This document shows, in pieces, positions 2,604 through 14,946 of a stretch of 43,294 nt of DNA (position 1 is the first letter of the stretch; each line of letters begins with the position of its first letter). This DNA is from a virus (taxonomy: Duplodnaviria; Heunggongvirae; Uroviricota; Caudoviricetes). A program made the position numbers and the translations under genes. The notes under the pieces are model-generated. The model saw only the letters and a list, made by a program, of their open reading frames with translations, made no database searches and had not been told where the DNA came from. The stretch lies in IMG/VR virus record IMGVR_UViG_2609460053_000008. One strand, given 5' to 3'.

Positions 2604-3656
2604 TCAGGAGCCGATATATTCTGGTTTCATATCTGTCAGTGTCGTTTTATACGCCTCATATAATTCTCCCAGATGTGGTCGTGCAGCATTCAGCGTATTT
2701 TCCAGAGCAATAAATTTTTGTTCTGCTTCTGGATCACCTGATGAAGGCAGGTCATTTATCATCTTCTCAATACGGGCAATAGCATTGAGACGGTGATGAC
2801 GCTGAACCACTTTTCCTTTAAGTTCTGTGTAGAGAGCGCCAAGTGTATTTTTATGATCTTCCACTTCCTGGCGAAGTGCTGTTGTTTCTCCGGTGCTTTG
2901 TGCCTGCTCAATACGTTCACGGAAAGCACTGATCCAGTTTTCCCCGGCATCCTGCTCAATAATTGTTGTTTCACGTTCCGCACGGCAGGCGGATGTGTTT
3001 TTATGTTCCTGAACCGGATTAATGATTTTTTCCTGTGGTTCGTCCAGTTCGTCCCGGGTGTACACTCCAAGAATCACTTCAGGGCAATAAAGGCGCGCCC
3101 AGCGTTTCAGAGCCAGATAGGCAAGCTGCTGGCGAGGATCATCGGCCCATAACGTTGAGTTACGTGTTCTGGCCTGCGCCAGAAGTAACTCCAGTACGCG
3201 TGGCTTGCTCTCTCCGCGTAGTGTTGCCTGGACGCGAACACCGATCCCGTTTTCATCGGCCAGCTTCCAGCCAGGTACACGATATTCTTTCCCCTTGTCG
3301 TTCTTCCTGATTTCAAATTTCCCGATAATTTTTTCCCACGGCCCGAACCAGTCATATTCAATACGCCCGGTTAGCGGCCCACGAGTACTGATTACGGCAT
3401 TAACCAGTTGCGCTTCATATCCGAGCACACCATTCACAACGAAAGTTTTCTGAGCTACTGCGTAAGGGTTCATTTGCCACTGCATCGCCTGCATGGTGAT
3501 GGCCATGCAGTCTGATGGATTTCCCCGGAGGTGTTCCGGTACAGTAGCCATGCCGGAAGCCATTACCTGGGAAAATGTCTGAATTGCAGCCAGGGACTGA
3601 GGGCTGAAAACCGCAACATTAGAGTTAATATTTTCTTGTTGAGTTAATTCGTTCAT
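2604..3656 (-). CDS. Putative single-strand annealing recombinase (RecT-like position, downstream of recE)
   Basis: 350 aa; start sits 12 nt after recE stop in the same operon; family assigned by position only, sequence not confidently matched. Confidence 0.5.
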   Translation of the reverse strand: MNELTQQENINSNVAVFSPQSLAAIQTFSQVMASGMATVPEHLRGNPSDCMAITMQAMQWQMNPYAVAQKTFVVNGVLGYEAQLVNAVISTRGPLTGRIEYDWFGPWEKIIGKFEIRKNDKGKEYRVPGWKLADENGIGVRVQATLRGESKPRVLELLLAQARTRNSTLWADDPRQQLAYLALKRWARLYCPEVILGVYTRDELDEPQEKIINPVQEHKNTSACRAERETTIIEQDAGENWISAFRERIEQAQSTGETTALRQEVEDHKNTLGALYTELKGKVVQRHHRLNAIARIEKMINDLPSSGDPEAEQKFIALENTLNAARPHLGELYEAYKTTLTDMKPEYIGS

Positions 3657-3667
3657 TGTGTCCTTCC

Positions 3668-6600
3668 TCAGATGCTCAGTGCTTCAAGACGACGAAGATC
3701 AAAGTCGTTTAATTCGTCGGTATAACTTTCGGTAATCGGTGCTGGCCAGTTGTTTGTCTCCAGAGCTTCGTTTATCTGTCGTAGTGTCCGGCGATATTCC
3801 TGTCGACCAAGTTCCAGGAGTTCCTGCGAGGCTTCCACGACGGCCACCCAGTGATAGCCAGCATCTTTGTTGACGAAGATCCAGAAAAATTTGTCCAGGT
3901 TTGCCACATCGCAATACATTGCTGCGCTGAGGTGATAATCACGTTCAATAATTTCACGGTGCAGGCGATCTTTCAGTCGTTCCTGTCGCACATAACCGAG
4001 GCTGACTGACTTCACGTCGGCGCAAATGCTTTCGTATGGCAGCCGGATTTCGATATCAGGACGGACCCTGATTTCCAGCCCGGTTTCTTCATCAAACCCG
4101 AAATAGCTGATTTCAGATTTGCGATCCGGGTGGTTGAGTAGCCTTGCTGCATCGGTATTGTTTTGCAGTGCCGCGTGAATATTTTTTGCCTGTTCATACA
4201 TATCCGGACTGATAAACGTTTTCCCGGCGTTTTCTTCTTGCTGGCGTTTTTGCCAGTCCTCCAGCGTCACCAGTTCCGGGCGAATTTTCCGCGCGATTTC
4301 GGTTAATTGCTCTTTTGTGCCACTGATGTTGTAAGGCAAAGATTTAGCACGTTCTTTTTTTGCCAGTTCTGGGTCTACAGCTTCAATTTGATCCAGAAGC
4401 TGCTCCCGTGCTCCACTGGTTTTCAACAGAGGAGGGAGGCTTGCGTTGTATTCTTTAATACAGGCTTTCATTGCTGATGCTGTGTGTTTTTCCCCCTCAG
4501 GAATACGCCGAAATTCCACCGGAAGCGAACCGTAAAGGATGCCTGTTTCTTCGGCCCCAGCACTTATAGACAGTGGCTGTATAAGAGTGCTGTTGTAGCT
4601 TTCGATCCACTCTTTCATCTGCTCTGGTGTCATCAGTGCTGGCAGACTGGCATTGTGTTTTTTAATGATGGCGATCAGTTCGTTAGAAGTAGTAACCACA
4701 TATTCAGGAACCGGTACCGGAATGGCATATTCATCAGCGAATTTATCCGTTTCCAGAACATAGCTGTGAATGATCCGCCCACGCAGCAGTGCATCACTTT
4801 CCTCGTTCGGAATAGTTCCGGCAATGTGCCGCCCGTGGTAATACATCAGGCTGATACGGGCATCCTTCAGCATCGTGCTGCTTATTCCGTTGGCGGAGTG
4901 ATAAACCTCGTTCGGGAGGTTTTCATAGCGGCCAGGCTCGAAATATGATGGCCACATGATTTCAGTTACTACAGGTGCTGTCGCTTCACCAGTTTCATCA
5001 CCGCAATCGCGATGCAGATCGCTGCCAGCATTCTCATTGTGCGGATGTTCAGGGCCTTCCATTTCCTCCGGCTCTTTTTCCTGAGATTCATCCAGATTTT
5101 CTTCATTAAAGGTTTCCTGATACGTTGCGTCGCCCATCACCGCGCCACAGTCAGGACAGTTGCCGCCGCCAGTCTGACCGCAGGCGGTGCAAACTTTCTC
5201 CGTTTCCTGTTGTTGCACTACTGGCTCAGGCTGTTTCGTTTCTGGCTCGTTTTGTTGCGTATTTGGGTCGTTCTGTTCCGTTTCTGGCTGATTCTGGTAC
5301 ACAGAATCGCGGGTCTGGATCCCCTTAACCCATTTCGGATCATTCGGGTCGCTAATCCCTTCAACAAATTCTCCGCGAGAGGCAGCCAGTAATTTGTCTG
5401 CATCGACAGGATTTTTGGGCGGAATGTTTTTCCGGGCTTCATAGAGTTCTGCCCGCAGTTTCTGATATTTCGCATCAACAGAATTTACCTGTGACTGAGC
5501 ATCCAGCGGCTGCGTGTCCTGATGATGTTCAGTTGCATCCGGTTCCACTGTTTCAGCCGTTGCCTGTTCATCTGCCATTGCGCAAGATGGTTGCAGTTTT
5601 TCTTCATCATCCTGTTTTTCTTCTTCTGTTACACGCTGCGGCATCGGGGCAGAGGAACGACCGCAGGCAATATCCACGATTTCTGGATCAGGGTTGGCAT
5701 GATCAGTTTCAGTCAGTACTTTGTTAAGATATTCAGTGACGTGTGCGGGGATAACCTCGATCCCAATTGGTGCTTCTTTTACGGACGCAACCACGATGGC
5801 GCGGGAATAATCCAGCCCGCCAGGCATGGTGATGAATTTGTCGCGGAAAACAGAAAAGGGCGGTTTATTTTCAGCGATAATTTCCTCGACACGTTTAGCG
5901 TGTGCCGGATGAAGGTTATAAATGTCCACGTCCATTGAACGAGCCAGTACGCCAGTCGCTACGTCGCGCGCCAGTGACGTCAGATCGTGAACGAAACCTT
6001 CGCCGCGATCGGTGAGGTTCCCGCCGCCAGCATTAGCGCCGGAAGCCGTGCGCGTGATGCATGAAACACGATTTCCTTTCATCCACTCTTTTGTCAGCAG
6101 ACCGCGATCGGTGTAGTCTGCGTCCAGGTATGCTTCGAAAAAAGCAGTCATCAGCCCCAGGCTTGAATTGCCTGGATTAGGGAAAACTCTGTCAGTATCA
6201 CGCACCAGTTTGTGGAGATCGCGAATTTCCAGCGGGTCGAGCAGGCTGGTTTTGTGGGAAACAGCCAGGGCAGTAACAGCTGGTAGTTCTTCAGCTCGTG
6301 CAATGTGTAATGCCTGTAGTTCGTCGCGTGAAACGTGCGTTACCGGTTTTTCGCTGCCGTGTTGAGCAAGCCAGCGAATGGGCAGCTCCTGACCGGAAAT
6401 CGGGAGTAGCATATTCTCCTCAATCTCCGTCATGTCTTCGCCATTAACATTGGTATTGTCAGTGCTGGCTGGTTTGTCCTGCGCAGAGGATGAGGGCGTG
6501 ATAAATACCATTGTGATGCCATCTTCCCCGCCTTTTTCGTAACGGTTGCAGAATTCCGTATCAAATACGCCTTCTGGTGGAAGGTCATCAACAACGGGCA

Positions 6601-6796
6601 AATTGACGCGAACAGGTTTTTTAAAGTCATCTTCATCGTAGCCAGCATCGTCAATCGCAACAGCACCACGGGAGATGGCAATGGATAATTTTTTCGCTTC
6701 AGCCCAGTAGAAACCGCCTTTAATACCGAGACGTTTTCTTACTTTGTCATTTTTTGCTTCGTAATACAGTGGGTAAACTTGTTTATCGGTGCTCAT
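3668..6796 (-). CDS. recE: Exodeoxyribonuclease VIII (RecE), 1042 aa
   Basis: Long stretches match recalled Rac RecE ([43 protein letters not shown]...); acidic/Q-rich low-complexity linker. Confidence 0.85.
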
Positions 6797-12312: not shown

Positions 12313-12736
12313 ATGGCAAAAGTATTTACACAAGAAGAGCGGGAAAAAAATCAAGGGACAGGTTGTTGAGCTAGTACGCCGGAGTGGGCGCGAGACGTTA
12401 CGGCAACTGGAAGCCAAGACAGGTGCGACAAGATATCTGATGAGCGTTCTCGCAAGAGAGCTGGTTGCCAGCGGCGATGTATACAACTCCGGCTACGGGT
12501 TATTCCCCTCTGAACAGGCGCGTAAGGACTGGCAAAACGCCCGCAAAAAACTCTCGAGGGCAAAGGTGAAGAAACCTGCTGTGGTTGATCCGGACCTTAT
12601 CTGGTCATCACCTGACGGAGAAATACGTCGCTACGACAGTCGCCTAAACATAATCTGTCGCGAGTGCCGGAAGAGTGAAGCTATGCAGCGTGTACTGGCT
12701 TTCTATCAGGGTAATTTTCAGGAGGCGGTACTGTGA
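12313..12736 (+). CDS. Hypothetical protein; RBS-backed ATG at 12313 is out of frame with the long ORF (A7 tract 12344-12350), or an internal start at 12440
   Basis: GGAGG-ATG at 12313 reads MAKVFTQEEREK then stops at 12367; long frame has no start codon between 12298 and 12440. Confidence 0.4.
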
Positions 12737-12793
12737 GTGAAATTAGCTATCAGGCTTCAATTACCGCTGGCATTCGCATCAAAGGAGAGGAGC

Positions 12794-13150
12794 ATGGAAA
12801 TAAAACCAGAGGATGAGTTAAGCAATATCGTTTTATTTCCGGTAAAAGAGGATGACCCTCGTAATCAGGTTAATTTTCTTTATGAGCCATCGGAAAGACC
12901 ATATTGTCATCACGCCTCTGTCCGGGTTGACGAAAAAGAGCGTCAGGTCCGCTGTAAAATCTGCGGTGCAGTTGTGGAGCCATTTGACTGGATGCTCTCT
13001 GTGGCGAAAAGAGAAACCAGACTGGCAGATGATGTAAGGCTCTTGCGTCAGGAGGAGCGGGAAAGGCGAAAAAATATAGAAAAGCTAATTCAGATTGAGC
13101 GTAACGCGAAAGCGCGGATACGCAGGGCGACAAAATCCAGAACTGAATAA
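12794..13150 (+). CDS. Hypothetical protein with Cys/His-rich motif and basic coiled C-terminus
   Basis: AGGAGAGGAG RBS before ATG (MEIKPEDEL); C-x-H-H...C-x2-C. Confidence 0.5.
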   Translation: MEIKPEDELSNIVLFPVKEDDPRNQVNFLYEPSERPYCHHASVRVDEKERQVRCKICGAVVEPFDWMLSVAKRETRLADDVRLLRQEERERRKNIEKLIQIERNAKARIRRATKSRTE

Positions 13151-13243
13151 TTAAATTTAGCTCTGTTAAAAATTTAATCCTTAACCGGAGGGATTTCTGC
13201 ACCCTCAGAATATCAGGAGGCCGCCCGAAAGGGCGGTAGTTAA

Positions 13244-13426
13244 ATGCGAAAGTTTAAAATAATTATTGAAACGGGAATAGCCGGTGGAGATTTCGAGGAT
13301 GAATTCGAAGTGGATGATGATGCGACGCCTGATGAAATACATGACGAAGCAAAAGATATTTTCTTTAACTACTGCAATTACTCATATCACGAAATAAAAG
13401 ACGAAGAGGAAGAACAAAATGGCTGA
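13244..13426 (+). CDS. Small highly acidic protein (60 aa)
   Basis: ORF rich in D/E (EDEFEVDDDATPDEIHDE...KDEEEEQ). Confidence 0.45.
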   Translation: MRKFKIIIETGIAGGDFEDEFEVDDDATPDEIHDEAKDIFFNYCNYSYHEIKDEEEEQNG

Positions 13427-13595
13427 TTTTGGTTCAACTAAATACAACGTCAGTTTTGAAGAATGGCATGAACTGTTAATGGACTATGCAGAGTTACGTG
13501 GTGGCAGTGCTGCTGATGCTGAAGCATGGCGTGATGATTATGAAGCAGAAAAAACTCCGGTCGAAGCATATTGTGATGAGTGGGGCGATGAATGA
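13419..13595 (+). CDS. Small acidic protein (58 aa)
   Basis: Hand-translated MADFGSTKYNVSFEEWHELLMDYAELRGGSAADAEAWRDDYEAEKTPVEAYCDEWGDE; start overlaps upstream stop (ATGGCTGA), stop overlaps next start (ATGA). Confidence 0.45.
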   Translation: MADFGSTKYNVSFEEWHELLMDYAELRGGSAADAEAWRDDYEAEKTPVEAYCDEWGDE

Positions 13596-13849
13596 GCGAG
13601 GTTAATTATCAGGAAGGGCATGAAACGGCGGGGCAAGCAAAAACAGTGGCATGGCGATATCGCTACGTGAAAAAAAAGGCGTTACGGACTTTCAGGGGAA
13701 GTAGTGGTCTGGTGACTGGAAATATGTACCGAAAAAAGAGGATTGTAACGACAGGCCGAACTATGAAATTCAGGCCTTATTCACTGCCCCGCCAGTCCCG
13801 GTTACATCAGAAGAACTGGTTAAAGCTGTGCACTTTTATGAACAACTAA
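13592..13849 (+). CDS. Questionable ORF; alternative frame is more protein-like but is interrupted by TAG at 13702
   Basis: Start coupled to upstream gene; product highly basic; see findings. Confidence 0.25.
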   Translation: MSEVNYQEGHETAGQAKTVAWRYRYVKKKALRTFRGSSGLVTGNMYRKKRIVTTGRTMKFRPYSLPRQSRLHQKNWLKLCTFMNN

Positions 13850-14078
13850 AACGCGAAAATCCACCAGCATCCGGAAACCTGATTACAGATTCCCAGATAA
13901 GGCAATGAGCTACCTGGCGCAGAACGGGCTGATAAGTATGGGGAATGTTTTACGATGAATATTTAGACTAAAGAGTTTGTAACGCTATGTAAGTGATTTT
14001 TTCTGGTTTAGATATTTATATATCCGGCCAAATTGAGGTGTGTTTAAATGTAATTGCACATTGATTGTAGGAGGAATA

Positions 14079-14258
14079 ATGAAAAACGCATTGCAGTTTT
14101 TGTTTGTTGCGTTCTGGTTGTTCGTATCATGTATGCCCATCATCTTCACAGCAAGGTATATGGAAAAAGTTGATGTTTTGATATTAATATTTGGATATAT
14201 AAATGCCCTTTTTTTAGGGGTGTTCATGGCGGTCATGTGCATTGAATACTGGCGGTAA
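14079..14258 (+). CDS. Small hydrophobic membrane protein (59 aa, two predicted TM helices)
   Basis: AGGAGG RBS 5 nt before ATG; MKNALQFLFVAFWLFVSCMPIIFTA...VLILIFGYINALFLGVFMAVMCIEYWR; AT-rich island. Confidence 0.5.
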   Translation: MKNALQFLFVAFWLFVSCMPIIFTARYMEKVDVLILIFGYINALFLGVFMAVMCIEYWR

Positions 14259-14460
14259 ATACAGCGAACGCCATTGGTTTAGTTGGATATTTACTGTGCC
14301 GGACAAAAACGGTTTGCGGGGAAATCTTAGTTAAGTAGAATGACTGCGGGTGCTTGAGGCTATCTGTCTCAGGCATGAACACCAAAAGGCAGATAGAGAA
14401 AAGCCCCAGTTAACATTACGCGTCCTGCAAGACGCTTAACATTAATCTGAGGCCATATCT

Positions 14461-14520
14461 ATGCGACACATAGAGATTAGCCTCTTACGGACCGAAAGGT
14501 CAAGGAGAAGCAGGCTATGA
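14461..14520 (+). CDS. mok: mok-like leader ORF overlapping the hok start
   Basis: 19-codon ORF MRHIEISLLRTERSRRSRL ending in TGA that overlaps hok ATG (CTATGA). Confidence 0.4.
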   Translation: MRHIEISLLRTERSRRSRL

Positions 14521-14672
14521 AGCAGCAAAAGGCGATGTTAATCGCCCTGATCGTCATCTGTTTAACCGTCATAGTGACGGCACTGGTAACGAGGAAAGAC
14601 CTCTGCGAGGTACGAATCCGAACCGGCCAGACGGAGGTCGCTGTCTTCACAGCTTACGAACCTGAGGAGTAA
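14517..14672 (+). CDS. hok: Hok/Gef family type I toxin (51 aa)
   Basis: MKQQKAMLIALIVICLTVIVTALVTRKDLCEVRIRTGQTEVAVFTAYEPEE; hallmark TRK(D/S)LCE motif; matches recalled HokD/RelF. Confidence 0.8.
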   Translation: MKQQKAMLIALIVICLTVIVTALVTRKDLCEVRIRTGQTEVAVFTAYEPEE

Positions 14673-14742
14673 GAGACCTGGCGGGGGAGAAATCCCTCGC
14701 CACCTCTGATGTGTCAGGCATCCTCAACGCACCCGTACTTAA

Positions 14743-14761
14743 CCCGCTTCGGCGGGTTTTT
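14743..14761 (+). terminator. Rho-independent terminator after hok
   Basis: CCCGC-TTCG-GCGGG hairpin followed by TTTTT. Confidence 0.65.
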
Positions 14762-14946
14762 GTTGCGTGCTGAATGTGCAGGGTGAAAAATAACCATATA
14801 TTTGATTATATACACAACAAAAAATAAAAGTCATTGTACCTGCACATTAAACAATCAAATATACGGCGTGAAATAAATATTTTTCAGATTAATATTTTTG
14901 TCTCTATGTGGATATAACCGTTTGTACTTATAAACCTGGAGGCATC

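Follow-up and report, generated by a model that had tools for sequence, protein, structure and literature searches.

The window analysed here, a stretch of DNA of 43,294 nucleotides, is a Rac-like lambdoid prophage of E. coli. It carries, in order, genes for an integrase, an excisionase, RecT, a 1042-aa RecE-like exonuclease and a repressor, followed by a CII-like gene (assigned with PHROG), O-like and DnaC-like replication genes, DUF1627, a DUF977/Ren-like gene and a zinc-ribbon ORF. These are followed by two adjacent small genes, which we call ORF60 and ORF58 after the lengths of their products, and by a frameshifted phrog_660 gene, hok/sok, NinB and an HNH gene. The antiterminator Q lies further downstream, as seen in the corresponding region of phage 640R1. 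This placement of the pair, with the replication genes on one side and hok/sok, NinB and Q on the other, bears out the Nin-like location given in the original prediction. The hok/sok locus is a type I toxin-antitoxin system, and an isrK-like sRNA match follows it (Table 1).

Table 1. Features at and around ORF60 and ORF58, in window coordinates.
Feature	Positions	Strand	Remarks
RecT-like annealing protein and RecE-like exonuclease	2604-6796	-	
Block shared with other E. coli prophages	13150-13900		751 bp
ORF60 Shine-Dalgarno sequence	13215-13220	+	AGGAGG; 23 nt before the AUG in linear distance; read from the sequence
Hairpin	13220-13237	+	GCCGCCC-GAAA-GGGCGGU; 7 bp, GC-rich, GAAA tetraloop; in the gap between Shine-Dalgarno sequence and AUG; in minimum-free-energy and centroid folds
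ORF60	13244-13426	+	60 aa; DUF7167/phrog_1997; net charge -15; stop codon TGA at 13424-13426
ORF58 Shine-Dalgarno sequence	13406-13410	+	GAGGA; in the poly-Glu tail codons of ORF60 (GAC GAA GAG GAA GAA CAA A-ATG)
ORF58	13419-13595	+	58 aa; phrog_519; without Pfam family; net charge -13
ORF58 codon 44	13548-13550	+	GAA (Glu)
ATGA overlap	13592-13595	+	ORF58 stop overlapping the ATG of the following ORF
phrog_660 remnant	13592-13849	+	frameshifted; RefSeq (CFT073): "frameshifted; internal stop"
A-run in the phrog_660 remnant	13670-13677	+	A8
hok/sok	14348-14672		Rfam sok match 14348-14519 (106.7 bits); Hok ORF 14517-14672
isrK-like sRNA match	14681-14762		sub-threshold; 24.8 bits, E = 0.009

Both ORFs encode strongly acidic proteins. 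ORF60 contains 20 D/E, 5 K/R and 8 F/W/Y residues (33% acidic, pI 4.05) and ORF58 contains 17 D/E, 4 K/R and 9 F/W/Y residues (29% acidic, pI 4.05), the richness in acidic and aromatic residues that had been claimed for them. Net charge per residue is -0.250 for ORF60 and -0.224 for ORF58. When all window ORFs of at least 50 aa in the six frames were ranked by acidity (n = 242), the two came first and second and the third-ranked ORF reached -0.115; when the window was block-shuffled 100 times, an ORF with a charge per residue of -0.22 or lower never arose. The prediction of two adjacent, very acidic small ORFs was thus confirmed by their coordinates, their net charges and their rank. Small size combined with dense D/E content (pI about 3–5) is a trait of DNA mimics, and ORF60 and ORF58 both show it.

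A scan of positions 12600–14600 found no promoter-like or terminator-like site on the + strand, so that ORF60 and ORF58 appear to be transcribed with the rightward early genes. The ATG of ORF58 lies 8 nt within ORF60. Coupling through an overlapping stop and start had also been predicted: the 8-nt overlap stands, whereas a functional pair does not follow from it, as stop/start overlaps are the rule in this operon. ORF60 ends in QNG, three residues contributed by the join to the ORF58 module; in other members of DUF7167 the acidic tail is the end of the protein.

The Shine-Dalgarno sequence of ORF60 is partly paired with UCCU (13178–13181) in the minimum-free-energy fold. If the hairpin that fills the gap before the AUG is folded, it would bring the Shine-Dalgarno sequence to about 6 nt from the AUG, forming a split ribosome-binding site; phage T4 gene 38 has a similar one. 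The hairpin is kept in the phages PhiR42_1, 606R7 and “Rac” 442/2 (L018, L019 and L020) with one mismatch, one wobble and zero compensatory changes, and it had no match in Rfam. We rejected it as a terminator, as it has no T-run and the + strand terminator scan was negative here, and as a nut/boxB-like site, given its position, which is wrong for nut, and the missing Rfam match.

ORF60 and ORF58 are real, conserved genes. The shared block has a 100% identical counterpart in a prophage of E. coli CFT073, where RefSeq annotates proteins identical to both ORFs (WP_001224662.1, a DUF7167 family protein of 60 aa, and WP_000753059.1, a hypothetical protein of 58 aa). ORF60 DNA was present in 1871/5426 complete E. 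coli genomes and ORF58 DNA in 1903/5426, about 35% in each case; both families are short and abundant. The dN/dS ratio was 0.06 for ORF60 (window against 606R7) and 0.10 for ORF58 (window against an IncI2 plasmid copy), indicating purifying selection on both. In distant homologues synonymous sites are saturated and the proteins can still be aligned.

These data bear on the possibility that the ORFs are decaying or meaningless frames of a cryptic prophage, their acidity being a by-product of GA-rich sequence. Inactivated copies do occur. In PhiR42_1, 606R7 and “Rac” 442/2 the block is 91–92% identical and the acidic genes are mutated: PhiR42_1 has nonsense codons in both ORFs, 606R7 has W37* in ORF58 (TGG to TAG), and “Rac” 442/2 has lost the ORF60 start (ATG to ATA) and carries C44* (TGC to TGA); AAA to TAA is also among the inactivating ORF60 changes in these copies. 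The acidic genes are therefore dispensable in resident prophages, and dead copies are expected of lytic-cycle genes in cryptic prophages. Decay would also fit the frameshifted gene after ORF58 and the Glu that the window ORF58 has where the family has Gly. Against it stand the low dN/dS values, the intact homologues in many virulent phages and on hundreds of plasmids, the confident AlphaFold2 models of both proteins and a charge that shuffling never reproduced. We consider decay scarcely credible as an account of these ORFs, and for the families as wholes it is largely refuted.

Among 78 non-redundant family members, 86% have Gly at position 44 of ORF58, in the turn between helix 2 and helix 3, and so does phage 640R1, which is 99.6% identical. 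The Glu at this position may be damaging; the same prophage has a frameshifted neighbor. That neighbor, the phrog_660 remnant, lies outside the acidic pair but inside the shared E. coli prophage block. Its A-run has eight residues in the window and six in PhiR42_1 and 606R7, and the intact copy in 606R7 encodes 119 aa that match phrog_660 at 1e-42. An 85-aa basic ORF starting at 13592 (pI 11) was considered as a partner of the acidic proteins and rejected, as it is an artefact of the frameshift in the phrog_660 gene.

ORF60 is a member of the DUF7167 family (Pfam PF23768; 55.1 bits against a cut-off of 24.4, over residues 2–53 of 60) and matched phrog_1997 with E = 9e-31. AlphaFold2 predicted a beta-beta-alpha-beta fold followed by an acidic C-terminal tail (pLDDT 78.8), with strands at residues 2–9, 16–23 and 46–51 and the helix at 29–39. 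Invariant in the family are E9, T10, E22, I32, A36, F40 and C44, and the loop at 24–26 and the tail at 53–57 are about 90% acidic or more. Homologues elsewhere are equally acidic (-0.18 to -0.30 per residue) and were found in a temperate Klebsiella phage, Guernseyvirinae, the 140-kb Enterococcus Brockvirinae, Phapecoctavirus and a Pseudomonas phage. On plasmids the family is nearly absent (15 records only). In Guernseyvirinae the DUF7167 gene overlaps the start of a DUF2800/PD-(D/E)XK nuclease gene. A functional link of DUF7167 with an exonuclease, as labels in phage records have it, was rejected, the Klebsiella neighbor being DUF2800/PD-(D/E)XK and the Enterococcus “exonuclease” being DUF3850/ASCH. 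We also rejected the equation of DUF7167 with TifA of Enterococcus phages, which has an SH3-like fold and belongs to a different phage group, and a DUF7167-Ead/Ea22 “fusion” as a functional clue, which looks like a read-through or wrong-start artefact.

ORF58 matched phrog_519 with E = 5e-22 at profile positions 76–137 of 143, and orf183 of phage CBA120 matches the same part of the profile. The long profile is probably made of fused or mis-started members, such as the DUF1187-ORF58 read-throughs P0139 and P0140; a 127-aa “fusion” of this kind occurs in some databases. Longer family members (NADAR, GemA and DUF1187 fusions) were set aside as clues, the DUF1187 fusion resembling a read-through or wrong-start artefact and the others sharing no consistent theme. 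Among 1.8 billion representatives the family forms 117 clusters at 50% identity, nearly all of stand-alone proteins of 50–65 aa. The AlphaFold2 model is a three-helix bundle (13–27, 34–42 and 47–55; pLDDT 87.1) whose weak fold neighbors are AAA+ lid and UBA-like bundles. The family motif is F-x2-W[HYF]-x2-L...AWR-x2-Y-x2-G-x-TP-x2-A[WF]-x-DE[WY]. Across the 78 non-redundant members, F13, W16, [Y/H/F]17, L20, A24, G28, W37, R38, Y41, G44, T46, P47, A50, [W/F]51 and [W/Y/F]55 are nearly invariant, and nine positions (14, 15, 33, 35, 39, 42, 49, 53 and 54) are at least 60% acidic.

The phages that carry ORF58 homologues include Ackermannviridae (CBA120 orf183, Menlow gp075), the KP34-like phage phiKDA1, where the gene lies between those for DNA polymerase and a 5'-3' exonuclease, and P22-like and Enterobacter prophages. 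The family was also found on 560 plasmids, of which 516 are conjugative and most are IncI2, including the mcr-1 plasmid pHNSHP45. On the IncI2 plasmids the homologue (86% identical) follows a DUF1187 (RcbA/YdaC-like) gene, which takes the place of DUF7167, and again overlaps it by 8 nt (L009 1090–1474, L010 5793–6177), in an operon that also has a CaiF/GrlA regulator, SPFH and NfeD and sits between repA and the type IV secretion genes. ORF58-family genes recurrently adjoin Ead/Ea22-like genes, in the int-xis arm as well as the nin region of prophages of Salmonella, Enterobacter and E. coli (L008, L020, L022–L026), and this repeated adjacency suggests joint movement as an accessory cassette.

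ORF60 and ORF58 are members of two independent families, and the genes do not form an obligate two-gene module. Eight non-E. coli loci with one of the families were examined, and at none of them did a gene of the other family lie adjacent: DUF7167 genes had a DUF2800 nuclease, a DUF3850 protein or ORFs without a Pfam match as neighbors, and ORF58-family genes had DUF1187, Ead/Ea22-like or unannotated genes. As the families are found apart from each other in non-E. coli elements, the pairing is not obligate; within E. coli the two genes move as a single block (1871 versus 1903 genomes). The acidity is position-specific in both families, which argues that it is selected and not the result of compositional drift. 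DUF7167/phrog_1997 and phrog_519 are catalogued but uncharacterised families, of which ORF60 and ORF58 are ordinary full-length members. Literature searches on DUF7167, the WP accessions, R721_90, LygF and IncI2 with DUF1187 returned nothing relevant, and the sequence motifs and family identifiers did not occur in the supplements of two anti-defence catalogues.

Our preferred reading, to which we give a probability of about 0.42, is that ORF60 and ORF58 inhibit nucleic-acid-binding proteins as electrostatic decoys, each independently of the other. They are two separate, very acidic accessory proteins of the Rac-like prophage, predicted to be folded and apparently expressed with the rightward early genes; the genes are tightly packed, each with its own Shine-Dalgarno sequence, and each protein would work alone. 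Each may act as a stoichiometric protein inhibitor whose conserved acidic surface, together with a small number of conserved aromatic and basic residues, would bind to a positively charged nucleic-acid-binding surface of a protein of the host or of a rival element and thereby block it. We infer the inhibition, the target protein and the kind of mimicry, whether geometric or merely electrostatic. The logic of an electrostatic decoy is that of Ocr, gp5.9, Gp2, TifA and several anti-CRISPRs. It is plausible to class the two proteins broadly as acidic inhibitors that serve anti-defence or host takeover; that they are DNA mimics in particular is unproven.

The main rival to host inhibition is a role inside phage or plasmid biology, which we judge unlikely. 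The proteins would then be acidic adaptors or chaperones for replication, recombination or lysis-lysogeny proteins, or would neutralise a basic partner encoded nearby. Their genes lie directly behind the replication genes and ahead of NinB and Q, ORF58-family genes recur beside Ead/Ea22-like genes, the IncI2 homologue follows a regulator and the DUF1187 gene with the same 8-nt overlap, and in E. coli the two genes are nearly always together. However, no neighbor is constant across the families, and the same proteins are found in virulent phages whose machinery for replication and regulation is altogether different, which points to a target that the host provides.

Many a small acidic phage protein has proved to counter host defences broadly (examples are Ocr, gp5.9, TifA and several anti-CRISPRs), and for this reason ORF60 and ORF58 are cheap, well-defined candidates for anti-defence screening; as such they are reasonable and in themselves unsurprising. 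Should either turn out to inhibit, the decoy repertoire would gain a new fold, and the protein might help to explain the spread of IncI2 plasmids and lambdoid phages among restriction-rich strains; if neither inhibits, they are ordinary nin-region “dark matter” genes. It is rather improbable, in our estimate, that at least one family is a structurally unprecedented class of nucleic-acid-mimicking inhibitor that disarms a DNA-processing enzyme conserved in Enterobacterales, for instance RecBCD, a component of a restriction or BREX system or a type IV nuclease. The better candidate for such a class is the three-helix ORF58/phrog_519 family, which is common to lambdoid, Ackermannviridae and KP34-like phages and to hundreds of IncI2 (mcr-1-type) conjugative plasmids. 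Were that true, an unrecognised counter-defence gene would be present in about one in three E. coli genomes and on a major class of resistance plasmids.

The proteins of phage T7 offer a calibration, with net charges per residue of -0.239 for Ocr, -0.154 for gp5.9 and -0.078 for Gp2. In a tiny sample, the small early and middle proteins of T7, the two most acidic are Ocr and gp5.9, both known DNA mimics. The charge density of ORF60 and ORF58 is practically identical to that of Ocr (gp0.3, a DNA mimic active against type I restriction-modification and BREX), and this is the strongest argument for the DNA-mimic idea; all three are phage-encoded and without enzymatic motifs. T7 gp5.9, a RecBCD inhibitor of 52 aa in the T7 record, is similar to both in size and acidity, and its gene occupies a slot comparable to that of the ORF58 homologue in phiKDA1. 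It shows no profile similarity to either protein, and it is a coiled-coil dimer, unlike the three-helix bundle of the ORF58 model.

The profile comparison with Ocr-type families that the original prediction proposed gave no similarity (hhalign probabilities below 1% against Ocr and gp5.9). Searches of the PDB with phmmer and hmmsearch returned nothing below E = 0.05 for either ORF, and those of Pfam, NCBIfam and PADLOC found no known DNA mimic and nothing relevant. Foldseek of the models against BFVD returned uncharacterised phage proteins only. Neither model resembled the fold of a solved DNA mimic, both being compact globular single domains and not elongated DNA-like shapes, and no homology to an unrelated characterised protein was found in the sequence, profile and fold searches. 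Because DNA mimics are polyphyletic, a lack of homology to them is compatible with a mimic mechanism.

That one or both proteins are strict B-DNA mimics, blocking type I restriction-modification, BREX or RecBCD-type enzymes in the manner of Ocr, ArdA or gp5.9, appears quite improbable to us. Besides a charge density equal to that of Ocr, it is in keeping with acidity that is conserved by position in both families, with the movement of both between unrelated mobile elements and with the frequency of the ORF58 family on conjugative plasmids. Mimics as small as gp5.9 exist, phiKDA1 has its ORF58 homologue roughly in the gene 5.9 position, and the prophage has RecE and RecT and lacks a Gam-like RecBCD inhibitor among the ten ORFs scanned against PHROGs (the long ORFs of the RecE/RecT arm, NinB and the HNH gene). 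Yet the proteins have no similarity in sequence, profile or fold to Ocr, gp5.9 or any solved mimic, their models are compact, unlike known mimics, and the two are not paired outside E. coli; for action against restriction enzymes the support is limited to charge and size.

Gp2 of T7, an inhibitor of host RNA polymerase, offers a different comparison, in which ORF60 would be a distant analogue, a small beta-beta-alpha-beta protein that inserts a negative strip into the downstream-DNA channel of RNA polymerase. The hhalign alignment of the two is in register, with a probability of 0.23% that is not statistically significant. Gp2 needs a C-terminal Arg pair to bind the beta-prime jaw, but its basic C-terminus is absent from ORF60, which has a poly-acidic tail there instead. 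ORF60 thus shows neither homology to Gp2 nor the Arg pair, and we regard the analogy as highly unlikely.

TifA (Orf65 of Enterococcus phage phi47) is a small, highly electronegative inhibitor of type IV restriction enzymes; it binds DNA-targeting defence enzymes and inhibits them, yet its geometry is not obviously that of B-DNA (PMC11322646). Its fold is SH3-like, 21% of its residues are acidic, and neither its sequence nor its fold is related to those of ORF60 or ORF58. We consider TifA the most apt functional model for the two proteins.
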